DNA of 64,000 bases. Source: a virus. Lineage: Duplodnaviria > Caudoviricetes. The position numbers and the translations under genes are program-made. Where the stretch lies: IMG/VR virus record IMGVR_UViG_3300027747_002427; one strand, given 5' to 3'. Below the pieces are notes generated by a model that did no database searches, was not told the origin of the DNA, and saw only the letters and a list, made by a program, of their open reading frames with translations. Shown one piece after another: positions 335 through 36,611 of this stretch (position 1 is its first letter; the number at the start of each line of letters is the position of its first letter).

Positions 335-766
335 ATGTTATCATTTAAGGAGTATTTTGAAGAGGCGGAATTAACTCAAAGAACGGGTCATAAAGGGTTT
401 ACTGGAAGAGTGTTTGTTTACTTTAATATCAATCTTTCGGACAAATTAAAGACCCCCTATTTTTCTGTTAAGAATATGAGTACTGGAAGAGTCATTGGTC
501 ATGAGACTTCCTTTATGGTAAGAGATGCAACCTTTAAAGTTAGTGCAGCTGGTAATGAAAGAGTAAATCGAGAAGGTAAAAAGAATGTTCATGCTGGGGT
601 AGTGGGTTATTTGGTTCATGAAGAACCGCGTGCTCTTGACACCCCAGTTACCTATAATCCTTACAAATATAAAACTTTCGTTAAAGTGGCGGATGAAACT
701 CCAGTACATTCAGCGGATTTAGTTTCTTTTGCAAATAGAAGGCTTACAGCTGAAAATGTAAAATAG
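335..766 (+). CDS. Conserved phage hypothetical protein with CTS-like N-terminus
   Basis: 143 aa; FKVSAAGNERVNREGKKNVHAGVVG and TYNPYK motifs resemble a widespread phage family; starts MLSFKEYFEE; TAAATA 6 nt upstream. Confidence 0.6.
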   Translation: MLSFKEYFEEAELTQRTGHKGFTGRVFVYFNINLSDKLKTPYFSVKNMSTGRVIGHETSFMVRDATFKVSAAGNERVNREGKKNVHAGVVGYLVHEEPRALDTPVTYNPYKYKTFVKVADETPVHSADLVSFANRRLTAENVK

Positions 767-794
767 TGCACATTACAGACTAATTATTATACAA

Positions 795-1622
795 ATGAAT
801 AAAGATCAAATTAACTTACAAGAAGTTTATAGTAGAATCTACCTTAAGGAAGATGAAAATTTTAGTGATCAAATAAATCCTTCAGCTCAAGAGAGAGCAG
901 AATCTGTTTATGGCGAAGAGATTCCACCTGTAGAAGGTGAGAGTGAAGAACTAGGAGAAGATTCTAATAATTCTGTCAAAATGCCCAACAGAGTAGCTCA
1001 TATGGTCAAGGTAATGAAGAGTAAGGGAGAATCTTCAGACTACGTTACGGGTTATCTTATGAGTATGATTCAGAATACTATTGATGTTCCTAATATGCCT
1101 AGCCTTCAAGATCAGATTGATTGGGCAATAAATCATTACGAAAAAAAGACTCTTCCTGAGGAAGATGAAACCCAAGAAAAGATGAACGAGGATTCTAAAT
1201 CAGGTTCTTACACTCTTTATTATAAAGATTCTGAAGCAAAGAAGACAAGTGCTTGGTATACATCTGAGACTTTAGAAGATTTAGTCAATCAAGTCAACAA
1301 AGGTAATAAAGGAATGGATTATGATTTGCCAGTTGTTGATGAAGACCGAGTATTTAAAAACAAGGAAGAGCTTTTAGATTTTTGTTCTCATAGTGACTTC
1401 TTTATCAAAGGACCGGATGGTAATTTAGTATCAGGTTATCCAGTTAAGCCAGGAGATTGGGAAAATGATATTAACGAGAAGAAGGAAAAATTTACAATTA
1501 ATACACCAACTCAAGGTCAATTGATTTCTAAGACTAGAGCACCAGTTCACAAGCCTACAATGCAAATCAAACCCAAGAAGGGAATATATAATCGCCAACA
1601 ATTCAAAAAGGATTATGAGTAA
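795..1622 (+). CDS. Acidic hypothetical protein with basic C-terminal tail
   Basis: 275 aa ORF, E/D-rich. Confidence 0.55.
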   Translation: MNKDQINLQEVYSRIYLKEDENFSDQINPSAQERAESVYGEEIPPVEGESEELGEDSNNSVKMPNRVAHMVKVMKSKGESSDYVTGYLMSMIQNTIDVPNMPSLQDQIDWAINHYEKKTLPEEDETQEKMNEDSKSGSYTLYYKDSEAKKTSAWYTSETLEDLVNQVNKGNKGMDYDLPVVDEDRVFKNKEELLDFCSHSDFFIKGPDGNLVSGYPVKPGDWENDINEKKEKFTINTPTQGQLISKTRAPVHKPTMQIKPKKGIYNRQQFKKDYE

Positions 1623-2067
1623 ATTCCAAAATCTCTATGAGTCACTTCTCTTAGAGATGCCACATATTTCTTTTGAAAAGAATGGCAAACATTTTGATTT
1701 TGATTTAGAATTAGAAAAACATCAGAAGGACTGGTATGGATTAGTGCGTTTAATGCATAATATTCTAGGGTCCAATTCAGTTAAAGACAAGTATGGTAAT
1801 GTTTTAAGTCTACAAACTTCAGATGAAAAGGAAGCATTTGTAGAAGAGTTAAGAAACAATCCTATGTTTACTACTTTCATTAAAAGGTTTTATAATAAAG
1901 ATTTTAATGATCTTTTAGATTTAAGTCATTATACTCCTAAAATAAACGTAGCACATAAGAACAATACAACACCACAAGGGACAACCAATTATGGCAAAGG
2001 TGTTTCTGCCAATTTAAAATCTTCTATGGGAGATCAATTACCAACGGGCAATAGTGCCGCTATGTAA
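1615..2067 (+). CDS. Hypothetical protein
   Basis: 150 aa ORF overlapping the upstream stop. Confidence 0.55.
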   Translation: MSKFQNLYESLLLEMPHISFEKNGKHFDFDLELEKHQKDWYGLVRLMHNILGSNSVKDKYGNVLSLQTSDEKEAFVEELRNNPMFTTFIKRFYNKDFNDLLDLSHYTPKINVAHKNNTTPQGTTNYGKGVSANLKSSMGDQLPTGNSAAM

Positions 2068-2079
2068 GTAAATATAACA

Positions 2080-2511
2080 ATGCGTACCTTTGACACAATT
2101 ATTTTAGGAGAAGCTTATTCTAAAGTTCGTACTATAGAAGAAGCTAAGTTTCGTGATATAGCTGCCGCAGCGGCTTTAGGTCTTTCTGGTCTTACAGGTG
2201 CTCATGCTACTACAGCCGACGATCAAGCAGATACTCATGGACTTAATCCTCCGATTGTACAACAAGCAACAAAGGAAGAGCCAACTGAAACCAATTATCA
2301 TAAGGCTAAAGTAGCTTATGATAAGGCAGTCAAAGAAAAAAAGGCAGATATAGAGACTTTAAAAAATATATCCTTAGATACAGACTATGCAAAAAGATAT
2401 GCAGGTCATTTAGTTTTAATGGGCCATGATGTTCCTGATATCATCAGAGATGCAGCAAAGGGTTCAGCAGAAGAAACTGAAAAGGCTTTACAAAGCCAAG
2501 ATTTGAATTAA
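2080..2511 (+). CDS. Hypothetical protein (late-promoter motif upstream)
   Basis: 143 aa ORF; TAAATA at 2069-2074. Confidence 0.55.
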   Translation: MRTFDTIILGEAYSKVRTIEEAKFRDIAAAAALGLSGLTGAHATTADDQADTHGLNPPIVQQATKEEPTETNYHKAKVAYDKAVKEKKADIETLKNISLDTDYAKRYAGHLVLMGHDVPDIIRDAAKGSAEETEKALQSQDLN

Positions 2512-2828
2512 TTTTTAATTCGAGGTTTACGTTTTTTGGGACGAGTTTTTTCTTGATAATCTCTATTTAAATCTTGTTGTTCTTGTAACACAGAACCATC
2601 GATAAAGGCTCTCCAAGCAATTACGCCTTGTAATATAACATTTAAAAATATTATAGTAGCTCTTACTTCATTTATACCGTGAAACCCACCGTCTGCGGAA
2701 TCTGTGTGATGAGAAAGATCGGATATTAAAGATGTTATCATAGCAACACTAGCATAGAGACAAAGTTTGACTTTAACGCTACTAATAGAAACCACCGATC
2801 TAACTGGTTCTTTTCTTTTTATTGCCAT
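2508..2828 (-). CDS. Two-TM membrane protein with basic C-terminus (holin-like)
   Basis: Two hydrophobic segments; RPKKRKPRIKN tail; TAAGTA 5 nt upstream. Confidence 0.45.
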   Translation of the reverse strand: MAIKRKEPVRSVVSISSVKVKLCLYASVAMITSLISDLSHHTDSADGGFHGINEVRATIIFLNVILQGVIAWRAFIDGSVLQEQQDLNRDYQEKTRPKKRKPRIKN

Positions 2829-4460: not shown

Positions 4461-5402
4461 ATGAAAGACATATCTTTGTATTACGACGATATATATCTCG
4501 TTCCTCAATATTCTGAATTAAAAAGTAGAAGTGGAGCTGATACATCATTAACGTTTGGAAATCACAAATTCAAGCTTCCTATTGTTCCTTCTAATATGAA
4601 GGCAGTGATTAATGAAGAATGGTCAAAGTGGCTTTCTGAAAATGAATACTTTTATGTTATGCATCGTTTCAATAGTGCTACAGTGCCTTTTGTAAGAAAT
4701 GCTAATACAGAGAATTGGAAGACTATTAGTATTTCTACTGGAGTTAATGAAGAGAGTTTAGCCGAATTAGAAATTTTAAAAAATGATGGATGTAGAATTG
4801 ATTTTATAACAATTGATGTAGCTCATGGACATCATATTAAAGTGGCAGAACGTATTGAAGATGTTAAAACTTTATTCCCAAATACTTTTATTATTGCTGG
4901 TAATACATCATCTCCCGAAGCAACAGAAGAGTTAGAGCAATGGGGAGCAGATGCTACTAAATGTTTAATTGGTACTGGAAGTGCTTGTTCGACAAAATAT
5001 CAAACCGGATTTCATGTACCTTCATTTTCTTGTATTCAAGAATGTGCATCAGTAGCAAAGAAACCTATTGTTGCAGACGGCGGAGCCAAGTATTATGGGG
5101 ATATAGCTAAATCTTTAGTTGCCGGTGCTACTATGGTTATGAGTGGTGGAATGTTTGCCGCTTGTTCCGATTCACCAGCACCAGAGATTAATGGTAAGAA
5201 AAGATATTTTGGAAATGCTTCCGCTGTAGCAAAGGGTAAGAATCTTCATGTAGAAGGTTTTGATTTGCAAATTGAAGATGCGGGAATAAGTTTAGAAGAA
5301 AGATTAAACGAAATTCATCAAGCTTTACAAAGTTCTATTAGCTATGCTGGTGGATGGGATTTAAGATGTTTTCAACACGTAAAATATGTCAGACTCAAAT
5401 AA
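4461..5402 (+). CDS. guaC: GMP reductase
   Basis: YDDIYLVP, YFYVMHRF, ITIDVAHGH, IIAGN, GTGSACST (catalytic Cys), ADGG; 313 aa without CBS domains. Confidence 0.88.
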   Translation: MKDISLYYDDIYLVPQYSELKSRSGADTSLTFGNHKFKLPIVPSNMKAVINEEWSKWLSENEYFYVMHRFNSATVPFVRNANTENWKTISISTGVNEESLAELEILKNDGCRIDFITIDVAHGHHIKVAERIEDVKTLFPNTFIIAGNTSSPEATEELEQWGADATKCLIGTGSACSTKYQTGFHVPSFSCIQECASVAKKPIVADGGAKYYGDIAKSLVAGATMVMSGGMFAACSDSPAPEINGKKRYFGNASAVAKGKNLHVEGFDLQIEDAGISLEERLNEIHQALQSSISYAGGWDLRCFQHVKYVRLK

Positions 5403-8763: not shown

Positions 8764-8997
8764 TTATTTTTCCGGTTTTAATTGCCCACCACGTCTTAAA
8801 GCTCCTCTATAATTAGAAGCTTGAAGTTTAGCTCTTTTAGAATTATGCTTTTTAACAACCCAATTACTTAATTTTTGTAATTTAGTAGAAGTTGATAACC
8901 CTTTTAAAGATACTCTAAATTTTTGCCAATCATCAGATGATACAGCTTTATCTATTTGCTGATGTGTTGCTTCATAAAAGAAGGTTTTGAAATTCAT
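8764..8997 (-). CDS. Small protein with CTS-like N-terminus; apparent paralog of 5811..6167
   Basis: MNFKTFFYEA...; TAAATA upstream. Confidence 0.55.
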   Translation of the reverse strand: MNFKTFFYEATHQQIDKAVSSDDWQKFRVSLKGLSTSTKLQKLSNWVVKKHNSKRAKLQASNYRGALRRGGQLKPEK

Positions 8998-9897: not shown

Positions 9898-10755
9898 TTG
9901 AACATGAATAAGATTTTAGTTATAGGTGATATTCATAACCATTGGGTTAGAGCTGAAGCCATTGCATCAAAATACGATGATCATACTATTGTGTTTATCG
10001 GAGACTATTTTGATGACTTCGGTGATACTGCTATTGACGCTGATCAAACAGCTAGATGGCTTAAAGAGTCATTGACTAAGCCTAATCGAATCCATCTGAT
10101 GGGTAACCATGACATTAACTATTCCTACCTAAACTATAGGAAGGATAGTAAGGGTAATCTTCAGAACCTTTATCATTGCTCTGGGTACACTCTTCAGAAG
10201 GATGATGCTATTAATCGAGTTATGACCAATGAAGATTGGGATAAGATTAAGATGTATCATTACGAGAATGGCTGGTTCTTTACCCATGCTGGGCTTTCCC
10301 ATTATTGGTTTGAACACCCTGTTCTCGATACAACTCCTGAGATTATTACCAAGAAGCTTGATGAGGCTGTAGAGATGTATAAGAATCGGGAGTATACAGA
10401 TATTCTTGGAGCTGCTGGAAGGTGTAGAGGTGGTACTCACAAAGTAGGTGGCATTCTCTGGCATGATCACTTCAGAGAGTCTACTCCTCTTCCTTTTATT
10501 AAGCAGGTCTATGGTCATACTCCTAATACTACAACAGTAGGTCCTCTTATTGATATTGAAAAGGATGATGAATACTCAATCAATGTAAATGTTGATTGTG
10601 GTCTTCAAGAGGTCTTTAGAATTCATGAGGATGGTTCTGCAGGTCCCTTAAAAACAGATCTGCAGAACTTTTACTACGAAGCTAAAAAGAAAGACTTTGA
10701 TGCTATGATGAAGACTATTGACTCTCAGGCTTGGGGAGATTATAATAAGATATGA
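9898..10755 (+). CDS. Calcineurin-like metallophosphoesterase
   Basis: GDIH, GDYFD, GNHD, THAG and GHT motifs. Confidence 0.85.
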   Translation: MNMNKILVIGDIHNHWVRAEAIASKYDDHTIVFIGDYFDDFGDTAIDADQTARWLKESLTKPNRIHLMGNHDINYSYLNYRKDSKGNLQNLYHCSGYTLQKDDAINRVMTNEDWDKIKMYHYENGWFFTHAGLSHYWFEHPVLDTTPEIITKKLDEAVEMYKNREYTDILGAAGRCRGGTHKVGGILWHDHFRESTPLPFIKQVYGHTPNTTTVGPLIDIEKDDEYSINVNVDCGLQEVFRIHEDGSAGPLKTDLQNFYYEAKKKDFDAMMKTIDSQAWGDYNKI

Positions 10756-11480: not shown

Positions 11481-11648
11481 ATGAACCCATCATTGTTTAT
11501 ATTTCATATAGCAATGGTATTCTTGTTAATAGGTTTTGGTATATTTGGTTGGATGGTATATAAACCATTTAAGAAAGTTTATAAGAGAGGTAGGAAGGCT
11601 AAGAGAAGACTTAAAAAGTTTAATGAGTCTAAATCTCCTTCAAAGTAA
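11481..11648 (+). CDS. 55-aa single-TM peptide with basic tail
   Basis: MNPSLFIFHIAMVFLLIGFGIFGWMVYKPFKKVYKRGRKAKRR... Confidence 0.4.
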   Translation: MNPSLFIFHIAMVFLLIGFGIFGWMVYKPFKKVYKRGRKAKRRLKKFNESKSPSK

Positions 11649-12303
11649 CCTTACCTTCTTTGTCAATTATTAGATAGTGACAAGGTTCATCACAGAAAGA
11701 GCCTGAATTGTGATACTCTTTACCTGATTCTTCACACTTAAAGCTTTCGGCAAAATGGATATGCCCTCCAATAATGGCATCATAGTCTTTGTCCTTAATA
11801 TAGTCTAAGGCTTTATTCCTAATCTTTACCTTTACATTTAGGAATACTTTTGATGTTCTTTTTAACCATCTGGAGAACTTCTTTGATCTATCAATACTCT
11901 GGAAAAAATAATAAATGCTTTCAGCAATATGAGTTACAATAGGATATTTTTTAAGGAAAGAATCAAATTGATGAAAATGAATAAACAAGAACTTCTTATT
12001 ATTAATTGTTAATTCATACTTGTCAATAAACTCTAGTCCTAGAACCTTTATTAGGAATGTTGAATTAATGTCATGATTACCTTTAATGAGGGTAACTTCT
12101 TTCTTCTTGGCTATCTTTCTAATAAGAGCTAAAACTTTCCAGTGATGTTTCTTGTATCTTTCTATATGCTGATTATCAAATAGATCACCATTCACTATTA
12201 AATGATTATATTTTTCATTCTTTAGAACATTAACTACAGTTTTAACTTTAGAGACTGGGCTTCCTAAATGAATATCTGATATAACAAGAACATTGTCTTT
12301 CAT
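11629..12303 (-). CDS. LpxH/YbbF-like metallophosphoesterase
   Basis: ISDIHLG, NGDLFD, GNHD, IH.HQFD, GGHIH motifs. Confidence 0.75.
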   Translation of the reverse strand: MKDNVLVISDIHLGSPVSKVKTVVNVLKNEKYNHLIVNGDLFDNQHIERYKKHHWKVLALIRKIAKKKEVTLIKGNHDINSTFLIKVLGLEFIDKYELTINNKKFLFIHFHQFDSFLKKYPIVTHIAESIYYFFQSIDRSKKFSRWLKRTSKVFLNVKVKIRNKALDYIKDKDYDAIIGGHIHFAESFKCEESGKEYHNSGSFCDEPCHYLIIDKEGKVTLKEI

Positions 12304-13526: not shown

Positions 13527-13640
13527 AATTTTATATAACAGAGTTTAAAGCAACGCCCGATTCCTATTGGATTATGGATATAGGGGGTAGAAAGGTTAGA
13601 AGGTTTATTGAATGGCTTTGGTTTAGAATTGAATATTAAT

Positions 13641-14168
13641 ATGAAGCCTACAGTTGTATGGATTACTGGATTATCGGGTGCTGGTAAGACAACTGTAGCC
13701 GAACTTTTAGAACAGTATTGTTTCTATAAAGGTCGTAAGGTAGGTTTATTAGATGGGGATGTTATTCGAGCAACATATGAAAAGCCAAAAGGCTTTGATA
13801 TGAAGAGTAGGGAGAGGATGGTTAATGAAATGGTCTATAGAGTTAGAAATATGGTGGAGTTTCAAAAAGTTGATGTCACTATTGTTGCTATGATATCACC
13901 TCTTCAGTCTATGAGAGATAACGCTCGTAAGCTCTTGACATCTTACTCTGGTGCTAAGTTTGTAGAGGTTTATTTAGATACACCATTAGAGATTTGTGAG
14001 CAAAGAGATCCAAAAGGTCTTTATAAAAAAGCTCGAGCTGGTGAGATCAAAAACTTTACAGGTATTGATTCAATCTATGAGCCAGCAACACACGCTGAAG
14101 TTATAATTCCCTTTAATTATACAGTTGAACAATCTATAGAACTAATATATAATTCAATAATAATATGA
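13641..14168 (+). CDS. cysC: Adenylyl-sulfate (APS) kinase
   Basis: WITGLSGAGKTT, LLDGD, ISP, EVYLDTPLEICEQRDPKGLYKKARAGEIKNFTGIDSIYE; start moved to MKPTVVW. Confidence 0.93.
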   Translation: MKPTVVWITGLSGAGKTTVAELLEQYCFYKGRKVGLLDGDVIRATYEKPKGFDMKSRERMVNEMVYRVRNMVEFQKVDVTIVAMISPLQSMRDNARKLLTSYSGAKFVEVYLDTPLEICEQRDPKGLYKKARAGEIKNFTGIDSIYEPATHAEVIIPFNYTVEQSIELIYNSIII

Positions 14169-18746: not shown

Positions 18747-18762
18747 TTAAATAATTTTATAT

Positions 18763-18852: not shown

Positions 18853-18855
18853 TAT

Positions 18856-18933: not shown

Positions 18934-18940
18934 TTTTAAC

Positions 18941-19029
18941 GGAAGTGTGTCTGAGTGGTTTAAAGAGTCAGTCTTGAAAACTGAAGAGGTCTAAAGCCTC
19001 CGTGGGTTCGAATCCCACCGCTTCCTCCA
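18941..19029 (+). tRNA. tRNA-Ser(UGA)
   Basis: TCAGT-CTTGAAA-ACTGA; long variable arm; CCA. Confidence 0.92.
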
Positions 19030-19052
19030 TATAAAAGGGGGTAAGTATTTAT

Positions 19053-19406
19053 ATGTTTACAAGAATTAAAGATACTCTCCAAGGTAAAGCTCCTATAACA
19101 GCTTCTCGCTCTCCTAAATGGAATGGTGTGAGAGATGCACATTTAAAACAACAACCTAATTGTGCAGTTTGCGAAGGTAATGAAAATCTTAATGTTCATC
19201 ATATTAAACCCTTTCATTTACACCCAGATTTAGAATTAGAACCTACTAATCTTATTACTCTTTGTGAATGTGAGAAGCATGGTGTTAATTGTCATTTACT
19301 CATTGGGCATTTAGGTAATTTTAGAAATGTTAATCCACATGTGTTAGAAGATGTTCCACTTTGGAATGCTAGACTAAAAGAAAAAAACAATAATCCAGAC
19401 TTATAG
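19053..19406 (+). CDS. HNH endonuclease inside tRNA cluster
   Basis: CAVC...VHHIKP...NLITLC...CHLLIGH. Confidence 0.85.
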   Translation: MFTRIKDTLQGKAPITASRSPKWNGVRDAHLKQQPNCAVCEGNENLNVHHIKPFHLHPDLELEPTNLITLCECEKHGVNCHLLIGHLGNFRNVNPHVLEDVPLWNARLKEKNNNPDL

Positions 19407-19454
19407 TTATTGCCTTACTGATGAAGATGTATTAATATATACATCATAAGCATC

Positions 19455-19529
19455 CGGGATGTAGCTCAGCTTGGCTAGAGCGCTTGGTTTGGGACCAAGA
19501 TGTCGTAGGTTCGAATCCTATCATCCCGA
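19455..19529 (+). tRNA. tRNA-Pro(UGG)
   Basis: CTTGG-TTTGGGA-CCAAG; CGGGATG/CATCCCG; no CCA. Confidence 0.93.
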
Positions 19530-19536
19530 AATTTAA

Positions 19537-19611
19537 TGTCGAGTAGCTCAGTGGTAGAGCGGAGAGCTGTTAACTCTTTGGTCGTAGGTTCAAATCCTAC
19601 CTCGACAGCCA
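19537..19611 (+). tRNA. tRNA-Asn(GUU)
   Basis: GAGAG-CTGTTAA-CTCTT; G73; CCA. Confidence 0.93.
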
Positions 19612-19648
19612 ACTTTTTTTGAAACTCTTAGGGTAAGTAATATCATCT

Positions 19649-20002
19649 ATGACCCTTTCTCCAGTAGTTTCCTCTCTCCCAGCCACTCCAAATATAGGGT
19701 GGAATAATTCTTGGGTTTCCGTACCCAATGACCAAAGTAGATCTTTATTTGCTCAAGCAATGTATAAAGTTAATGAATTAGGTAGTAATGGAATTACAGT
19801 TATTGCTGGGACTAATCAAGTAGATGGTAAATTTGGGGGTCTTCAAACAATAACTTCAACGGTTTTTGCAGGATTGACTTCTTCCGGGACTACAGCAGTA
19901 AGTGCGATATCTATTCCTACATTCCCAGCTGGGTTCGTTTTAAACGGCAATTTTACATCTATAAAATTAACAAGTGGTCAAGTCATTGCTTATAACGCTT
20001 AA
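19649..20002 (+). CDS. Small beta-rich probable virion protein
   Basis: C-terminal PAGFVLNGNFTSIKLTSGQVIAY; N-terminal module shared with 6421..7068. Confidence 0.5.
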   Translation: MTLSPVVSSLPATPNIGWNNSWVSVPNDQSRSLFAQAMYKVNELGSNGITVIAGTNQVDGKFGGLQTITSTVFAGLTSSGTTAVSAISIPTFPAGFVLNGNFTSIKLTSGQVIAYNA

Positions 20003-20004
20003 AT

Positions 20005-20012
20005 TATAAATA
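20005..20012 (+). promoter_or_regulatory. T4-type late promoter TATAAATA
   Basis: Exact T4 gp55 consensus, 7 nt before ATG 20020. Confidence 0.55.
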
Positions 20013-20019
20013 TAATATC

Positions 20020-20259
20020 ATGAGTATAAAAATAGTAACAAAACCAGAAGAATCATTAACAATTGAATCCGTAGAAGTAATAGCTGTAAGAGATTTATTT
20101 GACGAAAAAAAGATTATAGCTCGTATAGCAGGTCTCCCTAGAGGCGTTATCCTTTGGGAAGGAGATACAGAATATACAGCAGCCGGTAATTGGACAAATG
20201 AAACAGCAATAGCTAAGGCAAACGAGGTTATTAATTCCGGTTCTATTAAGTGGGCTTAA
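20020..20259 (+). CDS. Hypothetical protein
   Basis: 79 aa ORF with late motif. Confidence 0.5.
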   Translation: MSIKIVTKPEESLTIESVEVIAVRDLFDEKKIIARIAGLPRGVILWEGDTEYTAAGNWTNETAIAKANEVINSGSIKWA

Positions 20260-20277
20260 TTTAGCTTAAAAAACTAA

Positions 20278-20305
20278 TTGCATTTATTAATCATTTCTTT
20301 ATAAT
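20278..20305 (+). promoter_or_regulatory. sigma70-type promoter for purA
   Basis: TTGCAT-N16-TATAAT, ATG 6 nt later. Confidence 0.65.
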
Positions 20306-20311
20306 AAGGGA

Positions 20312-21310
20312 ATGATTAATTTTGTTGATATCATAGTAGGTCTTGCTTGGGGGGATGAAGGCAAAGGTAAAGTCTCAAGCGCTTTAGCCAAAGATTATGA
20401 CATGGTATGTCGTTGGAATGGTGGTCCAAATGCTGGTCATACGGTTTATCTAAATGATAAGAAATATAAAACACATCTGATTCCTTCTGGAGTATTTCAC
20501 GGTAAGCCTTCTATTATAGGTCCTAATTGTGTTATTAATATCAGCAAGTTTTGGGAAGAGATGGAATATCTTAAAGAGAATGGGTTTGATACTTCTTTAG
20601 TAAAAATTCATCCTCATGCTCATGTGATTACTAAAGATCATATTAAATTTGATTTGGATTATCTCAAACCAAAATTAGGAACAACCGGTCAAGGCATTGC
20701 TCCTTGTTATGCGGCAAAAGCAAATAGAGTAGGAGTTCAAATTAAAGATTCTTCGATTGATCCGATATATCATTGGAATGGAAAATTACAAGGTAAAATT
20801 CTTTGCGAAGGAGCACAAAGTATTTGGTTGGATATCAATTACGGGGATTATCCTTATGTAACAAGTTCTGAAACGTTTCCTCATAATGCTTGTTCTCTTG
20901 GATTTTCTCCAAAAAAGATCAGAGACATTATTGGAGTAGCAAAGATCTATGATACAAAAAGTGGTGTAGATCCTTTATTTCCAGAAACACTTTGGGACGA
21001 TCCTATTCTTGATAAAGTCATTGAAATTGGAGGAGAAGTAGGAACGACAACTGGAAGAAAAAGAATTGTAAACTGGCTAAATGTTAGAAAGCTAGTTGAG
21101 GCTATTAATCTTTCAGGAGTAACAAAGCTTATTATTAATAAGTGTGATGTACTAGAAAAGGTTGGCGAATTTAGATATAATTTTGATAATAATGGATTTG
21201 TATCAATTGGTCTTAATCCATTTAAGAAAAGTTTAACAAAAGATATAATAGAAAACACAGAACTTAAAGAAGAAGATATTGTATTTTCCGGTGACACGAC
21301 TAAAATATAA
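20312..21310 (+). CDS. purA: Adenylosuccinate synthetase (short form)
   Basis: GDEGKGK, GGPNAGHT, EGAQ, PYVTSS, GTTTGRKR. Confidence 0.92.
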   Translation: MINFVDIIVGLAWGDEGKGKVSSALAKDYDMVCRWNGGPNAGHTVYLNDKKYKTHLIPSGVFHGKPSIIGPNCVINISKFWEEMEYLKENGFDTSLVKIHPHAHVITKDHIKFDLDYLKPKLGTTGQGIAPCYAAKANRVGVQIKDSSIDPIYHWNGKLQGKILCEGAQSIWLDINYGDYPYVTSSETFPHNACSLGFSPKKIRDIIGVAKIYDTKSGVDPLFPETLWDDPILDKVIEIGGEVGTTTGRKRIVNWLNVRKLVEAINLSGVTKLIINKCDVLEKVGEFRYNFDNNGFVSIGLNPFKKSLTKDIIENTELKEEDIVFSGDTTKI

Positions 21311-21312
21311 CC

Positions 21313-21627
21313 ATGAGTAATTCCACATCATCAGCCTTCAAAGGCATTCCCACTAAACTTACAAACAATCCAGAGGTTGTTGAAGAAATTCTTCTTACAG
21401 AAGTTCCTGTAATTGATGAGACTTTATTAGAAACACCATCTACTGAAACACCTATAGTTGAAGTACCAATTGCAGAAGGTTCATTATTAGAGAATCCTAT
21501 TATTGATGAAACTTTATTAGAAGAAGGTTCTTTAGAAGAACAACATAAAGATCTTTTGAAGAAAGAGGAAAGTGTTTTGGAAAGAAAGATTGAAGTTTTA
21601 GAAGAACTTAAAACTTTAATTTCTTAA
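21313..21627 (+). CDS. Highly acidic repeat protein
   Basis: Repeated PxIDETLLE / EGSLLE units. Confidence 0.5.
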   Translation: MSNSTSSAFKGIPTKLTNNPEVVEEILLTEVPVIDETLLETPSTETPIVEVPIAEGSLLENPIIDETLLEEGSLEEQHKDLLKKEESVLERKIEVLEELKTLIS

Positions 21628-21635
21628 AAATTTAT

Positions 21636-21706
21636 TTCCTGGTGGTGTAATGGTAGCACAAGAGTTTTTGGCACTCTTTGTCGAGGTTCGAGTCCTTGCC
21701 GGGAAG
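21636..21706 (+). tRNA. tRNA-Gln(UUG)
   Basis: AGAGT-TTTTGGC-ACTCT; TTCCTGG/CCGGGAA; no CCA. Confidence 0.9.
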
Positions 21707-21714
21707 CTTTTTAG

Positions 21715-21743
21715 TTGATATTCCTTTATAAAACATTTAATAT
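21715..21743 (+). promoter_or_regulatory. sigma70-type early promoter
   Basis: TTGATA-N17-TAATAT-ATAAACA-ATG, same layout as 9014. Confidence 0.65.
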
Positions 21744-21750
21744 ATAAACA

Positions 21751-22107
21751 ATGAGCGAAGAAAATACAAAGACAGTAAGACTAATGGAATCCTTTACCAC
21801 ATATGAGTGCCATGGAGACATTAAACTTAATCTTGATATTTTCCCGGAATTGAAAGATAAGACAAATCAAGAAATTCAAACTTGGTTAAATGAAAATTCT
21901 GGTAATCTTTATATTGATTGTTATAGCCAAGAACTTCGCAAAGATCAATATTATATATATTCCCAAGAAGAATTAGATGATATGTTGGTTAATGGAGAAG
22001 ATCCTGAAATAGATGATAGTGTAATAGAACTTTCAGAATATTGGTCAAATACGGAAGTGATTTGGGATAAAATCAAGTGTGAAGAAAAGACTTTGCATGT
22101 ACAATAA
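21751..22107 (+). CDS. Acidic hypothetical protein
   Basis: 118 aa ORF. Confidence 0.5.
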   Translation: MSEENTKTVRLMESFTTYECHGDIKLNLDIFPELKDKTNQEIQTWLNENSGNLYIDCYSQELRKDQYYIYSQEELDDMLVNGEDPEIDDSVIELSEYWSNTEVIWDKIKCEEKTLHVQ

Positions 22108-22114
22108 TTTAAAT

Positions 22115-22199
22115 GGGTAGATCGCATAGCGGCAATTGCCGGAGACTGTAAATCTCCTCTCCTCGGAGTTCGAAGGTTCGAGTCCTTCTCTGCCCACCA
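22115..22199 (+). tRNA. tRNA-Tyr(GUA)
   Basis: GGAGA-CTGTAAA-TCTCC; variable arm; CCA. Confidence 0.92.
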
Positions 22200-22203
22200 T
22201 TTT

Positions 22204-22872
22204 ATGAAAATTAAAACTAAACTTACAAAAATTTGTACAGGTGTTTATCTTTGCGAAATTGATAATGCTTATGATTTGGCAATGACTTTTTGTAGGGTTC
22301 AAGAATTTTATGAATCTTCTTTTGAGCAAATAAGAGGCAAAAATTTTAATATGATGGAATTTCAAAGAATTTATTCTTTGAAAAATGGAGGAACTTTTAC
22401 ATATCCTGAAGACTGGTCTGGTTTTAATATTCCTAGTGGTATTTTAGATAAATTTTATAAAGGTTCTTGGGTTCAGACAGATTGGAATATGTATGATTCA
22501 GTATTAAAAAAAGTGATCAATCAAATAAAAGAAAACAAACCTTATTATTTGATAGGGACACAGAAAAAGGATCAAGATACCATCAATCATGAATTATGTC
22601 ATGCGTTTTATAAATTAGATAAAAAATATAAAAAAAGTGTAACCAAACTTATTAATAGTATTCCAAGAAGACTTTTAGATAAAATGAAAAATGTTCTTCG
22701 TAAAACCGGATATTGCGATAATGTATTAAGAGATGAAATACAAGCATATCTTTCCTGTGACCAAGCCTTTTTAGGCGATGCAATAAGATCCGATTGGGAG
22801 AAAATAGAAAAGTGGGGTATTGTTTTTGAAAAACATTTTAATAAACATATTACCCTAAATATAAAGAAATGA
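22204..22872 (+). CDS. Zincin-like (HExxH) hypothetical protein
   Basis: INHELCHAFY motif; downstream DEIQAY. Confidence 0.55.
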   Translation: MKIKTKLTKICTGVYLCEIDNAYDLAMTFCRVQEFYESSFEQIRGKNFNMMEFQRIYSLKNGGTFTYPEDWSGFNIPSGILDKFYKGSWVQTDWNMYDSVLKKVINQIKENKPYYLIGTQKKDQDTINHELCHAFYKLDKKYKKSVTKLINSIPRRLLDKMKNVLRKTGYCDNVLRDEIQAYLSCDQAFLGDAIRSDWEKIEKWGIVFEKHFNKHITLNIKK

Positions 22873-24008
22873 ACTTTAAAGATTTCTATAACAACGAAGA
22901 AGGACACATGGTTCTTGTTAAAGACGTTGAGATTAGTGAGGCGTTATCATATCACCTGAAACATAAATTAACCTTAAGTGAAAATGCTTTTAGAATATAT
23001 TCAGATCAATACTTTGCTTTAATTCAAGAAGCTAGAGATCTTTATAATCAAGATGCCTTGGCTTTAAATGACGAAGATGTAGAATTAGTTGAATCTTCTT
23101 TAGGTGAAAAAGCAATTTACAACGGAAGAGAAGTTTATTTAGAAGCCCCTCTTTATCTAAGTGAGGATATTATATTAGAAGCAACATTGGAGCCTAATTC
23201 TATTGATACAACAATTTATGTTGATATGGATGGGGTTTTAGCTGATTTAAGAAAAGCAGTTTGTCAATATGTTGGTAAAGATCATGTTGAAGACGAAGAT
23301 TATGACAAATATTTCTTAGATCATAAAGACAATATAAAAGATTGTTTTAGAAATCTTACAAAATTCGATTCAACAGATTATTTAATTAAGCTTGTTTCGG
23401 ATGTTGCAGGGTCTTATAAAATTTGTTCATCGCCTTTAAGAAGTGATAGAGAAAATTCATCCATCGGAAAAAGTGAATGGTTAGAATCCAATTTAGAAAT
23501 TAAACCTTTAGAGAAAATTTTTACAGGCCGCAAAGAGTCCTATGCTACTACAAACGGCAAACCTAATATTTTAATAGATGATAAAGAAAAAAATATTAGA
23601 AGGTGGGAAGATAAAGGCGGAATAGGAATTCTTTATTCGGCAGAACATGATAGTCTAGACACAATTGTTCAAGGTTTAGAAAGAGCTAAAAAAATATTAA
23701 TGGGTGAAAGTACAATTACAGAAGCTATTAAAAATGGTAAAAAAGTAAAACTCGGCCATCCATTTAGAACCCCAGGAGGTCCTAAGAAATTTGCCGTTTA
23801 TGTTAAGACACCCAAAGGTTCTATCAAGAAAGTAACCTTTGGAGATCCTAATATGAAGGTTCGTAATAATAATAAAGCTAGAGCTAAATCATTTAGAGCA
23901 AGACATAAATGTTCTCAAAAGAAAGATAGAACAACGGCTGGTTATTGGAGCTGTAATGTTTCTCGATATCGTAAAGCTTTAGGTTTAAAATCTTCAAGAG
24001 TCTGGTAA
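22869..24008 (+). CDS. Multidomain protein: CTS-like N-domain + HAD 5'(3')-deoxyribonucleotidase-like + DUF6321-like basic C-domain
   Basis: MNFKDFY; IYVDMDGVLAD, ICSSP, K, ILIDD HAD motifs; KKFAVYVK...TFGDPNMK...RAKSFRARHKC...YWSC. Confidence 0.75.
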   Translation: MNFKDFYNNEEGHMVLVKDVEISEALSYHLKHKLTLSENAFRIYSDQYFALIQEARDLYNQDALALNDEDVELVESSLGEKAIYNGREVYLEAPLYLSEDIILEATLEPNSIDTTIYVDMDGVLADLRKAVCQYVGKDHVEDEDYDKYFLDHKDNIKDCFRNLTKFDSTDYLIKLVSDVAGSYKICSSPLRSDRENSSIGKSEWLESNLEIKPLEKIFTGRKESYATTNGKPNILIDDKEKNIRRWEDKGGIGILYSAEHDSLDTIVQGLERAKKILMGESTITEAIKNGKKVKLGHPFRTPGGPKKFAVYVKTPKGSIKKVTFGDPNMKVRNNNKARAKSFRARHKCSQKKDRTTAGYWSCNVSRYRKALGLKSSRVW

Positions 24009-24271
24009 TGAGCCTTCCGTTTCAGCAAGAAAGGATATCTGATAAAGAAGTTATCAGATCATTTTCAGAATTTATAGATGAAGAAGATTTAAAATGGCAT
24101 TTTGATAAAGAAGACAGAATAGTTGAAGCTTTAGAACCTACGGATTGGTTAATTCAATTTGATAACCAATTACCCCAATTAATAGAAGGCAAAATAGAAA
24201 TCCCTGCTGGAATATATCACAGAGTAATAAAAGGAAAAAAAGATTTTAAAATTAAAATTAAAATGTCTTGA
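24008..24271 (+). CDS. Cupin-like small protein
   Basis: WHFDKEDRIVE...IPAGIYHRVIKG pattern. Confidence 0.6.
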   Translation: MSLPFQQERISDKEVIRSFSEFIDEEDLKWHFDKEDRIVEALEPTDWLIQFDNQLPQLIEGKIEIPAGIYHRVIKGKKDFKIKIKMS

Positions 24272-24296
24272 TCTTTCTTATCAGGTGTATTAATAT
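24268..24296 (+). promoter_or_regulatory. sigma70-type promoter for tRNA-Val/Ala
   Basis: TTGATC-N17-TAATAT-AAAC. Confidence 0.6.
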
Positions 24297-24307
24297 AAAC
24301 ATGATAT

Positions 24308-24383
24308 GCACGAGTAGCTCAGTGGTAGTAGCGTTTCGCTTACACCGAAAATGTCGGGGGTTCGAATCCCTCCTCGTGTACCA
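24308..24383 (+). tRNA. tRNA-Val(UAC)
   Basis: TTTCG-CTTACAC-CGAAA; CCA. Confidence 0.92.
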
Positions 24384-24384
24384 T

Positions 24385-24457
<73 letters not shown>

Positions 24458-24467
24458 CTCCACTATT

Positions 24468-26141: not shown

Positions 26142-26538
26142 AATATCTTGGGAAGAATATGCTTTAAAAATAGCAGAAGTAGCTTCATTAAGAAGTGAGG
26201 ATCCTCGTACTAAAGTAGGTTGCTGTTTACTTCGCACAGATAATACCGTAGCTAGTTTAGGTTATAATGGAGCTCCAGCTGGAGTGGAAATAGAATGGAA
26301 TAACCGTGAAGAAAAACACAAAAGGGTTATTCACGCAGAGATTAATGCTCTTAGAATGGTTAAACCAGGAGAGTGTTATCTAGCAGCAGTAACTCATTCT
26401 TGTTGCAATGATTGTTTAAAATCTTTAGCAGCCTACGGAATCAAAAAAATAATTTATAAAACTCATTACGATACAGGCACCTCATATTCATTTACAGAGA
26501 TAGCCAAAGATTTCGGAATTGAAGTAGTAAATTTATGA
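26134..26538 (+). CDS. dCMP deaminase
   Basis: SEDPRTKVG, GYNG, HAEINAL, CNDC. Confidence 0.88.
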   Translation: MNRISWEEYALKIAEVASLRSEDPRTKVGCCLLRTDNTVASLGYNGAPAGVEIEWNNREEKHKRVIHAEINALRMVKPGECYLAAVTHSCCNDCLKSLAAYGIKKIIYKTHYDTGTSYSFTEIAKDFGIEVVNL

Positions 26539-26730
26539 TTTACGGTGGCTTTGTTTCCACCATTTACACCAACCATTTGGTTTAATATCACCAGCTACAG
26601 CTGAACACTTATTAGGCGAACGCCACATAGTACATTCATCACAGCGTTGACCCTTTACAGTGTGATCAACGTAACCTGCTTCTGATTTAGGATGTTTGGC
26701 TTTTTCTTCTATAAATGTTTTGAAATTCAT
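26533..26730 (-). CDS. High-potential iron-sulfur protein (HiPIP) with CTS-like N-terminus
   Basis: Y...GQRCDECTMW.SPNKCSAVAGDIKPNGWCKWW = C-x2-C-x8-C-x12-C with GWC. Confidence 0.8.
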   Translation of the reverse strand: MNFKTFIEEKAKHPKSEAGYVDHTVKGQRCDECTMWRSPNKCSAVAGDIKPNGWCKWWKQSHRKS

Positions 26731-32018: not shown

Positions 32019-32786
32019 ATGTCACTCATTAAATCATACCTCTCCGTATTAAACGAAGACACCAAGAAGACCTCCAATGTAGTCGCTGATAACACTGGAG
32101 AACTTGAAGGTTCTGAAAAGGCCAAGAATTTCGTTAAGGATTCCGGACCTGATGCAAATTGCACAGTCGAAACTCCAGTTGAAGGCAAATCACAAGCAGA
32201 CGTAACACCAGAGGAGTCAGCTCCTAAGTCAGTTAAGTCTGAATCAACAAATCCTTTCGACGTTCTTTATAATAAGGTTTTAGCCCAAGAAAATTGGGAG
32301 CTTGAAGAAGCTGAAGAGGAAGAAGAAGCCGGTGATGATAAGCCATTAGAATTTGCTGGTTTAGGTGAGCCAGAAGGCACCGCAGCTCATGAGCATGGCG
32401 AAGAATTAGGTCTCGAAGCAGTATTAGCTCATCTTAAAGGTGCAGTAGAAGCTTTAGAGAAATTAGTTTCCAGTGCAGTAAGCGATGAAGAAGAAGTTAC
32501 TGTTGGTGAAGAAGGGTCAGAAGTTGCTGAGCCAGTTGTACCAGAAGCCGTTGAAGCAGAAGTACTTGGTCATGCACTTAAGGATTCAGAAAAACTCTCA
32601 GCCGGTTTAACAAAAGGACATGAAGTCAAAGGTGCAGTACCAGTTACTAAGAAAGCTGGTTCAGTTGTAAAGGGTCCTAAGGTAGACGGAGAGCCAGAAG
32701 AGCTCAAGGGTAACCCAGAAGAATTACACGATAAGAGCAAGCAAAATGTTGGTGGTGTAACCCCAGGTAAGTCACTTTTCGCATAA
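32019..32786 (+). CDS. Acidic probable prohead core/internal protein
   Basis: E-rich; many x-x-E/A sites; late motif upstream; strong terminator downstream. Confidence 0.45.
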   Translation: MSLIKSYLSVLNEDTKKTSNVVADNTGELEGSEKAKNFVKDSGPDANCTVETPVEGKSQADVTPEESAPKSVKSESTNPFDVLYNKVLAQENWELEEAEEEEEAGDDKPLEFAGLGEPEGTAAHEHGEELGLEAVLAHLKGAVEALEKLVSSAVSDEEEVTVGEEGSEVAEPVVPEAVEAEVLGHALKDSEKLSAGLTKGHEVKGAVPVTKKAGSVVKGPKVDGEPEELKGNPEELHDKSKQNVGGVTPGKSLFA

Positions 32787-32866: not shown

Positions 32867-33205
32867 ATGCAAGAAAGCTTTTCTTCATTTTTTAAAAATT
32901 CTACACCTCATACTAGAGAACATCAACAGAACCCTATGAGGTCAATGAATAGAAAACACTTGAATCAAGTGCCTTATTCCAAGGGCCAACAAGCTAATGA
33001 TCCTTTAGTAGATAGAATTGTAAAAAATGACAAATACGGAAAGTGGCCAAATATTGGTTATGCAACAGGGAAGAGATTAGCTAAGACTTATCACATTAAT
33101 CATACAGAAGATAAAGCATATTCCAAATCTATTAATCGCACTGGCATAACTTTAAGTTATAACCCACAAACAAAGAAATTTGGTTTGGAAAGATTAAAAA
33201 AATAA
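32867..33205 (+). CDS. Hypothetical late protein
   Basis: CCCTAAGTA 5 nt upstream. Confidence 0.5.
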   Translation: MQESFSSFFKNSTPHTREHQQNPMRSMNRKHLNQVPYSKGQQANDPLVDRIVKNDKYGKWPNIGYATGKRLAKTYHINHTEDKAYSKSINRTGITLSYNPQTKKFGLERLKK

Positions 33206-35096: not shown

Positions 35097-35097
35097 A

Positions 35098-35283
35098 TTA
35101 AGCTACTTTTCCCTGTCTTACAAGATTACCGCAGCGACCACATTGCCAGCGAATATTCTTTTCTACTTTCTTAGTTCTTTGATCTACAACACTCTCAACT
35201 ATTCTACCGTCAACATGAGCACCACAAAAGGTGCATGCTATAGGTCTATTAGCGAGACTTTGATATTCTGGTCTATTATTCAT
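35098..35283 (-). CDS. Small Zn-ribbon protein
   Basis: CTFC...CGRC; start MNNRPEY. Confidence 0.55.
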   Translation of the reverse strand: MNNRPEYQSLANRPIACTFCGAHVDGRIVESVVDQRTKKVEKNIRWQCGRCGNLVRQGKVA

Positions 35284-35293
35284 ATTGATATAT

Positions 35294-36190
35294 TTACTTG
35301 TTATCACTTGGTTTCCAAGTAGAAATAACTTCACCATGTTTATTTTCTTTATTATGCTGGTGTTTATTTGCTTCTTCTAATTGCTTAGCTACATGAAGTT
35401 CTTTAAATTTATGGGTGATAAATTTACATAATTCTGAACGAACAATATCTTCTTCACTTAATTCCATACAGTATATGCCTTGAGTTTTAGCCTCATCGTT
35501 ATTGAATAATTCATACACTTTATTGAAACCCGACTTTCCATACGGAAGATCACTTTGTTCTGGGTCACCACAGAGAAACACTTTGGAAAATTCACCTATA
35601 CGACTCATGAGTGTGTGTATTTCTCTAGTTGAAAAGTTTTGAACTTCATCAGCACAAATGAATTTTGCAGAGAAATGAAGACCTCTAGCAAAATTAATAG
35701 GACATATAGTTAATCTATTATCTTTTTGAAGCTTATCTAATTGTGCTTTACAAAGAAGCTCTTCAAATTTATCATGAAAGGGTGTAAGATATACAGCTAT
35801 CTTTTCATCCAAAGTTCCTGGTAAGAAACCAAGTTTAGAATCCGAAGACTCAACTGCAGAACGAACTAGAACCATATCGGATATTCTCTTCATATTAAGA
35901 AGAGTCAATCCGCAATACATGGCAAGAGTTGTTTTAGAAGTTCCAGCTGGACCCTTCAATAAAAGAACTTTAGTACCTTTATCTAAAAATCTAGAAATGA
36001 TTTCTTTCTGTTTATTAGTCCAAGGTAAATTCTTAATAGTTAAATCAAATGAGATTTTATCTCTTTGAAATACATAAGGAGAATTGTCTGAGGTTTTTCC
36101 AGGTTCAACGGTAACTGGAGCCGTTTCGTGGCGGATACGACCTGATTGCTTTCGGTCATTTCCCTTTTTTGAGTGGGGTTTTTTACCCAT
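35294..36190 (-). CDS. phoH: PhoH-family ATPase
   Basis: GPAGTSKT, LVRSAVES...LGFLPGT, RGLHF, DEVQN, GDPEQSD, IVRS. Confidence 0.9.
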   Translation of the reverse strand: MGKKPHSKKGNDRKQSGRIRHETAPVTVEPGKTSDNSPYVFQRDKISFDLTIKNLPWTNKQKEIISRFLDKGTKVLLLKGPAGTSKTTLAMYCGLTLLNMKRISDMVLVRSAVESSDSKLGFLPGTLDEKIAVYLTPFHDKFEELLCKAQLDKLQKDNRLTICPINFARGLHFSAKFICADEVQNFSTREIHTLMSRIGEFSKVFLCGDPEQSDLPYGKSGFNKVYELFNNDEAKTQGIYCMELSEEDIVRSELCKFITHKFKELHVAKQLEEANKHQHNKENKHGEVISTWKPSDNK

Positions 36191-36203
36191 ATATAAAATT
36201 GTA

Positions 36204-36611
36204 TTAAGCTACTGCTCCGGGTACTGTTGTTTGAATTGCGTTAGATGATGGAGAACTTGTTGCAGGAGTAGTTGGAGTTGCAGGAGTAGTTGGTGTTGTA
36301 GTCGAACTCGGTTGACTTCCTGCTATTTTAACATCTAATCCAGATTTTGTTAAAAGTTCTAAAGCGGTTTTTTGATCTTCTGGACTAAGACTAGAAAATT
36401 TAGTAGGTGTTTTATCGTTTAAAACATCAGCCATTTTTGTTAAGATGTCATGATTCTCACCACCTTGTGTACCTAATTTGTCAAAAGTAGCATTTACAAT
36501 CTTTTGTGTTTGAGATGGTAAATTCTTTATAGCATTACCTGCTTGATTTAATGTAGCGGATGTTACATTGGTTTCGGCTTCGTTTATTATTTGATCAAAT
36601 TTTGTCATCAT
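36204..36611 (-). CDS. Hypothetical late protein with T/P-rich tail
   Basis: MTKFDQIINEAE; TTPATP repeats. Confidence 0.5.
   Translation of the reverse strand: MMTKFDQIINEAETNVTSATLNQAGNAIKNLPSQTQKIVNATFDKLGTQGGENHDILTKMADVLNDKTPTKFSSLSPEDQKTALELLTKSGLDVKIAGSQPSSTTTPTTPATPTTPATSSPSSNAIQTTVPGAVA

Follow-up and report, generated by a model that had tools for sequence, protein, structure and literature searches.

Why should proteins that have nothing else in common begin with the same few residues? The question is raised by a stretch of 64,000 nucleotides (the window), part of an uncultivated T4-like myophage with a G+C content of 32%. A first-pass annotation had noticed eight such N-termini, treated them as one family with looser versions, and likened them to the capsid-targeting sequence (CTS) found on T4's internal proteins. 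We compared the window with five relatives (G001 to G005, 177–226 kb, three of the five complete) that share about 75% nucleotide identity with it. In about 8% of the genes of this phage and its relatives, the protein starts with a short N-terminal tag of one of three interchangeable kinds. As these tags carry the cutting motif of a T4-type head protease, the tagged proteins are probably loaded into the capsid in the way that T4 loads its internal proteins.

When the sequence was re-read, all eight N-termini were found where they had been placed, and the result is stronger than had been stated. However, they belong to three separate classes: class A, M[KR]xKDQILLExAYxx[IV] (genes 795 and 2080, 30 bits each); class B, M(x)KFDxL[IV]xx[IL]LxE (genes 1615 and 36608, 25–27 bits); and class C, MxFKx[FY]FxE (genes 335, 8997-, 22869 and 26730-, 24–32 bits). 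One listed gene, 32019, is only marginal, and a class A gene, 795, had been overlooked, so that eight mutually non-homologous window proteins carry conserved leaders. The genes are as follows, a slash marking the candidate cut.

335..766 (+): gene 335, class C leader MLSFKEYFEE/AEL..., 24.1 bits; TAAATA 6 nt before the ATG.
795..1622 (+): gene 795, class A leader MNKDQINLQEVYSRIYLKE..., 30.1 bits; 275-aa protein.
1615..2067 (+): gene 1615, class B leader MSKFQNLYESLLLE/M..., 26.5 bits; 150-aa protein.
2080..2511 (+): gene 2080, class A leader MRTFDTIILGE/AYSKV..., 30.3 bits; 143-aa protein; TAAATA 5 nt before the ATG.
8764..8997 (-): gene 8997-, class C leader MNFKTFFYE/AT..., 32.0 bits; 77-aa basic protein, pI 11.2 without the leader.
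22869..24008 (+): gene 22869, class C leader MNFKDFYNNEE/G..., 30.5 bits; three-part protein.
26533..26730 (-): gene 26730-, class C leader MNFKTFIEE/K..., 28.1 bits; 65-aa protein with a HiPIP-like domain.
36204..36611 (-): gene 36608, class B leader (M)MTKFDQIINE/AE..., 25.2 bits; 134/135-aa protein, divergent from the tail sheath gene.
32019..32786 (+): gene 32019, MSLIKSYLSVLNE/D..., class B 8.9 bits; marginal and excluded from the members; late motif 12 nt upstream.
32867..33205 (+): gene 32867, MQESFSSFFKN..., class C-like 10.4 bits; marginal, conserved among the relatives (orthologues G001_30419 and G005_54966).

The start of the gene at 36204..36611 is likely 36608: from 36611 it reads MMTKF, whereas the second ATG gives the leader that had been reported, MTKFDQIINEA, with a 6-nt spacer after TAAATA. 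Its G001 orthologue begins MMKFDQIINEAE.

Genes used to train the class profiles score well by construction; independent support therefore comes from an unsupervised pair test and from position specificity. The pair test covered 1,116 genes with an ATG start, in the window and the five relatives, and compared their N-terminal 9-mers under BLOSUM62 with a score threshold of at least 28. Similar N-termini occurred in 144 pairs of non-homologous families, against 17 with column-shuffled sequences and 6 with peptides following an internal Met, an 8- to 24-fold excess. The bodies of the eight proteins first listed fall into eight different BLAST families, and across the six sequences the classes cover 53 body families (A 24, B 18, C 11). 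Moreover, the leaders sit almost only at starts. At 12 bits or more, class A was found at 36 called starts and 4 near-starts; among 3,698 internal in-frame ATGs the count was 1, and among 4,329 other ATGs it was 2. A class A profile search of 1.84 billion representatives returned at least 240 clusters at E ≤ 0.001; of the 150 matches listed, about 143 align from residue 1. The strict class A DNA pattern occurs in 108 IMG/VR stretches, where 103 complete proteins make up 59 body families; the class A leader was absent among the 50,697 phage records searched.

The leaders are modular and can be swapped. The cargo of gene 335 is PF25735 (phage L5 gp82-like), with the Pfam domain starting at residue 24, and proteins of this family have either no leader or one of class C or A. 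Most PF25735 homologues lack a leader and start straight at the domain (M[KR]VFVYFNLH), whereas in members of this clade the domain is preceded, at one and the same junction, by class C (MLSFKEYFEEAEL.QRTGHKGF) or by class A (P0014, MRNRDQILLEEAYGVICENELVARTGHKGF). We propose that the three classes replace one another on the same cargo and do the same job. Among 134 class A representatives the commonest recognisable Pfam domain was ART-PolyVal (3 members), along with 1 PARP; P0148 consists of a leader and an ART domain (residues 57–206, 53.6 bits). The Pfam domains of genes 335 and 26730 and of P0148 start at residues 16 to 57. The majority of cargo bodies are orphans; the recognisable ones are enzymes (nucleotidase, kinase-like P-loop protein, ADP-ribosyltransferase, GNAT and metallopeptidase-like). 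For the gene 795 product, Pfam and PHROG searches gave no match and the Atlas gave no usable one.

Two proposed cargoes in the window fared unevenly. Gene 22869, which had been called a HAD polyprotein, gained some support: it consists of an N-domain, an NT5C 5'-nucleotidase domain (116–260) and a very basic C-terminal domain (about 290–379) preceded by STITE/A, and this last domain is homologous to stand-alone 91–92-aa proteins with class B leaders in G002, G004 and G005. The HiPIP match of gene 26730- lies above the cut-off but is weak (PF01355 from residue 16, 23.8 bits against 22), and the gene has no counterpart at the syntenic place in G001.

Leader genes are enriched behind a late-type promoter motif. 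TAA[AG]TA lies 3–12 nt before the ATG in 63% of leader genes; the figure is 24% for other genes and 1% for ATGs that are not starts. In the window, where most of the genes had been said to have it, it precedes seven of the eight. The exception is gene 1615, which begins before the stop of gene 795 and lacks its own promoter; its orthologue, G002_137300, adjoins the capsid gene. As the motif also lies upstream of the sheath, tube and terminase genes, and gp55 homologues are present in G001–G005, TAA[AG]TA presumably acts as the late promoter of leader genes. Each complete or near-complete genome (G002–G005) has 13–20 of these genes, which cluster in variable regions such as 335–2511 of the window.

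How close is this to T4? The CTS of IPI, IPII, IPIII and Alt is removed by the prohead protease gp21, according to the accounts that cite Mullaney & Black 1996 (PMC3012670, PMC5694885). T-even internal proteins are a diverse set with only the CTS in common (PMC3012670), and Alt, an ADP-ribosyltransferase, loses an N-terminal propeptide by cleavage (PMC5694885). The leaders described here are alike in several ways: they are segments of 10–20 residues with which proteins begin that are otherwise unrelated; they have a hydrophobic or aromatic pair and then a Glu near residue 10 (MKTYQEFIAE/A in T4; MTKFDQIINE/A, MLSFKEYFEE/A and MRNKDQILLE/E here); their genes are grouped in variable regions, mostly behind a late-type promoter; and an ADP-ribosyltransferase is among the clade's cargo. 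The T4 leaders quoted in the first-pass annotation, MKTYQEFIAE and MKTFKEF...TITE, are correct as read from NC_000866. Also in keeping with its reading, the leaders are modular additions to unrelated proteins and most of them follow a late-type promoter; the phage lineage has T4-type head morphogenesis.

The T4 protease prefers I/LxE (PMC12991175), and T4 propeptides are 10–20 residues long (PMC5694885). A [LIVF]xE motif with its Glu at residues 7–14 is present in 78% of leader proteins, a figure partly built into the profiles; other N-termini show it in 19% of cases and internal windows in 14%. Protease, scaffold and capsid genes were assessed in G001–G005, G007 and G008. An S77 (gp21-type) prohead protease with conserved catalytic His and Ser was found in all seven of these near-complete or complete genomes, and the head genes run in the order protease, 87-aa protein, gp22-like scaffold and gp23-like capsid protein. 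Per 100 residues, the scaffold has 6.4–8.4 [LIVF]xE and the proteome 1.83.

Several observations speak against a CTS. The likeness to T4 leaders is one of pattern only, with a local FKE[FY] in gene 335: the T4 leaders of IPI, IPII, IPIII, gp24, gp22, gp67 and gp68 score about 4 bits or less, i.e. at background level, with the three profiles, so that the claimed resemblance does not extend to profile similarity. Class C often has FxE or NxE instead of I/LxE. Conservation of class A extends over some 20 residues, and a cut at Glu10 would leave AY..[IV] on the product, unlike T4. Only one of five scaffold orthologues groups with class B, and that one is a training sequence. Cargo isoelectric points show no significant shift (p=0.07). 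The window itself has no head genes, the machinery being seen in the relatives only, and the capsid protein of the clade is at most 36% identical to that of any GenBank phage, leaving it with no cultured relative. Finally, T4 has one leader class and four or five such proteins, whereas here there are three interchangeable classes, 13–20 genes per genome and at least 240 cargo clusters.

Giant phages offer a second comparison. In phiKZ, 201phi2-1 and SPN3US, a T4-related prohead protease cuts after Glu in many different head-internal proteins, among them ejection and inner-body proteins; the N-terminal propeptides are thought to send proteins to the prohead, and paralogues have identical N-termini (PMC5694885, PMC7411985). 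These traits parallel those proposed here. However, those propeptides are mostly longer than 100 residues with an A/S-x-E motif and are not a short portable tag on dozens of families, whereas conservation of the class A leader stops at about residues 19–21, often with [IV]L[LK]E.

We give an even chance to the reading that the leaders are capsid-targeting propeptides. With a gp55-type late promoter almost touching the ATG, leader proteins would be made while proheads assemble. The 10–20-residue N-terminal segment, with its helix-face hydrophobic spacing, would dock the protein into the scaffolding core, and the gp21-type protease would cut after the Glu of [LIVF]xE at or near the leader end. 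The trimmed cargo would be retained in the head with the DNA and then enter the next host cell, where it might serve host takeover or anti-defence.

We consider it unlikely, although it deserves a hearing, that the leaders are a common tag for docking to, or assembly with, a different partner (for example the virion outside, a tail or neck hub, a phage chaperone or a host structure), with no packaging and no ejection. Modularity, position specificity and late expression would suit any shared partner, and class A, which resembles a helix of about 20 residues with hydrophobic positions 8/9, 12/13 and 16/17, could be a generic binding helix. However, enzyme cargo makes little sense displayed on a particle, and the T4-like placing of [LIVF]xE would be left unexplained.

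It is quite improbable that the leaders mark proteins for a purpose outside the virion; for instance, the phage protease might time their breakdown or activation in the cytoplasm, or a modifying enzyme might recognise them as it would RiPP-like tags. A protease motif shared by so many late proteins might be regulatory, but T4-type prohead proteases act inside proheads and rapidly self-inactivate (PMC12991175). As to modification by a radical-SAM/SPASM leader-tag system, Radical_SAM (PF04055) was absent from all five relatives (three of them complete) and present in 14 of 14 control genomes, and no candidate modifying enzyme is linked to leader genes.

A nucleic-acid feature, either the ends of a mobile cassette used in recombination or a need of near-leaderless late mRNAs in their initial region, is very improbable. 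The ATG lies 5–7 nt past the promoter motif and Shine-Dalgarno sequences are not enriched, so the first codons are the sole 5' sequence of the mRNA; the grouping of leader genes in variable regions would also fit. In T4-type genomes, Arbiol et al. are said to have described, in 2010, promoter-stem-loop elements, mobile regulatory cassettes that mediate gene shuffling. However, the synonymous-codon entropy of the leaders equals the genomic expectation, which largely refutes such a feature, and the G001 orthologue of gene 8997- keeps its leader despite synonymous changes. In addition, unrelated N-termini follow the same promoter spacing in 244 other genes, and the three peptide classes show conservative amino-acid replacements. 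Conservation of the leaders is at the protein level and not at the DNA level.

Chance in an AT-rich genome, or fast-evolving paralogues recognisable at the N-terminus only, deserves next to no credence. In its favour, a G+C content of 32% makes N, F, K, I and Y codons the most frequent, and most cargo bodies are orphans. However, the internal-Met and column-shuffle controls argue against chance, and leaders are fused to well-defined, unrelated Pfam domains that are leaderless elsewhere (PF25735, NT5C, HiPIP, Zeta_toxin, DUF2201_N and ART-PolyVal). Where the cargo has recognisable domains, this reading is refuted.

Returning to capsid-targeting propeptides, we suggest, tentatively and with more doubt than confidence, a natural plug-and-play delivery system in a widespread, uncultivated clade of freshwater T4-like phages, probably of Bacteroidota. 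Three tags would direct cargo to the prohead, and some 20 proteins per phage, hundreds across the clade, would be packed, trimmed and injected as a fast-evolving arsenal (ADP-ribosyltransferases, kinases, a nucleotidase fused to a basic domain of DNA-binding-like character, and many orphans). If the leaders do direct proteins to the capsid, the internal-protein mechanism of T4, known from a handful of T-even phage proteins, would turn out to be general and much expanded among T4-like phages of the environment. Leader swapping within a single cargo family would then be a natural experiment on what the signal requires, and short portable tags that contain a known protease site would help to load foreign proteins into phage heads. 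The leader would also provide a sequence handle for injected proteins in metagenomes, and these proteins, mostly orphans today, would be prime candidates for anti-defence and host takeover.

All N-termini quoted in the first-pass annotation, which had proposed dispersed late genes with leaders resembling T4 capsid-targeting sequences (CTS), were found at their positions, and the late-type motif TAA[AG]TA stands 3-12 nt before the ATG in seven of the eight. Whether such similarity could arise by chance was examined without a preselected motif. A total of 1,454 genes, called heuristically, came from six sequences (the window and five large relatives, G001-G005). BLAST of the bodies, trimmed of residues 1-20, sorted them into 728 families. 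Pairs from different families with similar first residues (score of at least 28) numbered 144, versus 17 with column-shuffled residues and 6 for peptides following an internal Met. The similar N-termini cluster into three large components:

Leader classes in the window and five relatives (pattern; body families; window genes, with a trailing "-" for the minus strand)
Class A: M[KR]xKDQILLExAYxKV; 24 families; genes 2080 and 795
Class B: M(x)KFDxL[IV]xx[IL]LxE; 18 families; genes 1615 and 36608/36611-
Class C: MxFKx[FY]FxE; 11 families; genes 335, 8997-, 22869 and 26730-

The similarity is therefore real, but what had been described as one family with looser versions merged three classes and overlooked gene 795; gene 32019 is marginal (8.9 bits). 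The window has eight leader proteins and each relative 9-20, or about 4-8% of genes. Class C predominates in the lineage of the window and G001, and class A in G002-G005. Chance and decayed paralogy are excluded by the controls, together with the fusion of leaders to unrelated Pfam domains that lack them elsewhere. The observation is thus confirmed and enlarged.

The three class profiles match almost exclusively gene starts. At 12 bits or more, class A hit 36 starts and 4 near-starts versus 1 of 3,698 internal in-frame ATGs; training genes score high by construction, and internal and off-frame ATGs are the fair control. At class A positions not forced by the search pattern, conservation is high (K/R2, 98%; L/A/I12, 90%; Y13, 95%; I/V16, 81%) and fades at residues 19-21, often as [IV]L[LK]E; in this class the predicted cut would follow the Glu of ILLE or of [IV]L[LK]E. 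Synonymous codons within the leaders are as variable as genomic codon usage predicts (Asp GAT/GAC, 35/14; Leu, six codons; Ala, four codons). This indicates selection on the peptide rather than on DNA or RNA, and rules out a DNA cassette or an mRNA signal.

Gene 335 illustrates how leaders and bodies combine. Its body is a PF25735 domain (phage L5 gp82-like) starting at residue 24. Of the 120 homologues listed, those more distant (113-125 residues) begin at the domain itself (M[KR]VFVYFNLH) without a leader, while near homologues bear a class C leader. In five further PF25735 homologues (library proteins P0011, P0014 and P0017-19), the leader joined at this shared ...RTGHKGF junction is of class A instead, and so two leader classes interchange on one cargo. 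In IMG/VR, 108 stretches contain the strict class A DNA pattern (about 2 expected, by a rough estimate), in runs of up to eight consecutive genes, and the 103 complete proteins bearing it represent 59 body families. Searching 1.84 billion representatives with the class A profile gave 240 clusters at E<=0.001; among the matches listed, about 143 of 150 align from residue 1. Some library proteins (P0122, P0156 and P0249) have two class A copies, in tandem or internal. In P0156 the second half is homologous to the protein of window gene 795, and its leader now lies internally, behind a lysine-rich linker. The class A query had no match in 50,697 GenBank phage records, and we found no paper describing such leader sets in environmental T4-like phages.

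Of the leader genes, 63% have TAA[AG]TA 3-12 nt (mode 5-7) upstream of the ATG, a share that falls to 24% in the remaining genes and to 1% for ATGs that are not starts; at 5-7 nt the motif precedes about a quarter of all genes (e.g., 322-334, 2068-2079, 39121-39134 and 42447-42460). As it also lies upstream of sheath, tube, baseplate and terminase genes, and all five relatives encode gp55 homologues, it is most likely a late promoter, which implies that late mRNAs would be nearly leaderless and driven by a gp55-type sigma factor. Shine-Dalgarno-like sequences show no enrichment, being as frequent at starts (7%) as at other ATGs (7%). Another 244 genes with equal motif spacing have unrelated N-termini, and hence the leaders are not required for translation.

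The window (32-33% G+C) looks like a fragment of a distant T4-like myophage and contains:

36703-39114, tail sheath gene (about 38% identity to cyanophage and flavobacterial-phage sheaths in its C-terminal part)
39135-39695 and 48431-49030, two tail-tube paralogues, both phrog_45
46544-48427, large terminase gene

Baseplate-hub-like genes and the terminase gene lie between the two tail-tube paralogues, an order that differs from that of T4. The window also encodes PhoH, a gp32-like SSB and nucleotide-metabolism functions. Its 11 tRNA genes are mixed with small ORFs at 18433-24458; the one called as tRNA-Ser (18763-18852) has an unusual ACT anticodon, possibly through a miscall. Auxiliary metabolic genes (IMPDH/GMP-reductase family, APS kinase, adenylosuccinate synthetase and PhoH; 4461-5402, 13608-14168, 20312-21310 and 35294-36190) and two calcineurin-like phosphoesterases (9898-10755 and, on the minus strand, 11629-12303) were also seen. 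When the window was compared with the phage collection at the nucleotide level, only tRNAs matched, and no cultured phage is close. IMG/VR holds many relatives, of which five large ones were taken in full: G001 (177 kb) is syntenic with 7290-64000 at about 75% nucleotide identity, and G002 to G005 measure 195-226 kb, two of the four with terminal repeats. A T9SS sorting domain on one cargo, starts lacking Shine-Dalgarno sequences, low G+C and flavobacterial-phage affinities point to a host in the Bacteroidota, as we infer.

The head genes lie outside the window, and the head module was instead read in the relatives. An S77 (gp21) protease is encoded by each of the seven genomes tested, which are near-complete or complete; its ELNHP and GVSSR motifs are kept and align with T4 His85 and Ser140 (numbering of PMC12991175). 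The G001 head module runs from a head-completion gene through the protease (114777-115451), an 87-aa protein and a gp22-like scaffold to a gp23-like capsid protein. The T4 protease shreds its scaffold, and the scaffolds here contain 6.4-8.4 [LIVF]xE per 100 residues versus 1.83 in the proteome, as expected if the protease shreds them at such sites. Of the five scaffold N-termini, only one clusters with class B. The capsid protein (at most 36% identity to cyanophage gp23) aligns with T4 gp23, with WC[LI]EE immediately before the T4 cut position. The protease ORF of G005 (146877-148655, minus strand) has 592 aa versus 222-224 aa in other relatives; its insert begins with Cys right behind the catalytic ELNHPS and looks like an intein interrupting the gene. 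A conserved class B leader protein of 81-87 aa (G001, 88075-88320; orthologues in G002, G004 and G005) is paralogous to the part of the capsid protein that follows the predicted propeptide cut (GGS.G...IYNPP...D.YA).

The window cargo comprises the PF25735 domain, an NT5C nucleotidase, a weak HiPIP, a very basic 77-aa protein and four orphans. Taken as a whole, leader-bearing cargo has isoelectric points that are not significantly basic. An Atlas look-up of the gene 795 protein gave no usable match, and a single-sequence AlphaFold2 model of the gene 2080 protein was uninformative (pLDDT 46). Gene 22869, suggested earlier to encode a polyprotein, ends in a very basic domain preceded by STITE/A (slash, predicted cut). 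This domain stands alone in G002, G004 and G005 (91-92 aa) behind a class B leader (MKFDLLVESLLNE/AARC...), and a G003 counterpart was recognised by its N-terminus, which lends the suggestion some support. The domain also occurs in hypothetical proteins of Pelagibacter, Flavobacterium and Roseobacter podophages, which offer no functional clue. Cargo in the relatives includes a Zeta-toxin-like P-loop protein and DUF2201_N metallopeptidase-like proteins, the rest being orphans of up to 815 residues. Only nine Pfam families occur among 134 class A representatives, most commonly ART-PolyVal (three, plus one PARP). In P0148 a class A leader precedes an ART domain at residues 57-206, a combination that recalls T4 Alt; this protein was found on contigs of at most 1.5 kb only, and so has no gene context. 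An ART-PolyVal search of G001-G005 gave no match, with control genomes silent too, and is hence not evidence of absence.

In T4, gp21 prefers I/LxE (PMC12991175) and takes 10-20-residue propeptides off gp24, Alt and internal proteins (PMC5694885). An [LIVF]xE with Glu at residues 7-14 is found in 78% of leader proteins versus 19% of other N-termini, a comparison that is partly circular because the Glu belongs to the leader profiles. In T4 (NC_000866), IPII and IPIII start MKTYQEFIAE/A, IPI starts MKTFKEFTSTTTPVSTITE/A, gp24 starts MAKINELLRE/S and gp22 starts MLKEQLIAEA; a 54-aa ORF (19110-19130, minus strand) starts MKTFKEFIKE..., its first seven residues being those of the IPI leader. These resemble MTKFDQIINE/A, MLSFKEYFEE/A and MRNKDQILLE/E of this clade in pattern and position only, and T4 N-termini gave background scores against the three class profiles. 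The leaders might instead be a docking tag for another partner, or serve protease-dependent regulation outside the head, readings to which we together assign about a third of the probability. A tag recognised by a radical-SAM enzyme is excluded, as none of the five relatives encodes one. The annotation's interpretation, T4-like capsid targeting of a head-loaded, injected payload, is supported in part. We put at about even the chance that the leaders are capsid-targeting propeptides, which would be like the T4 CTS in function while not being detectably related to it.
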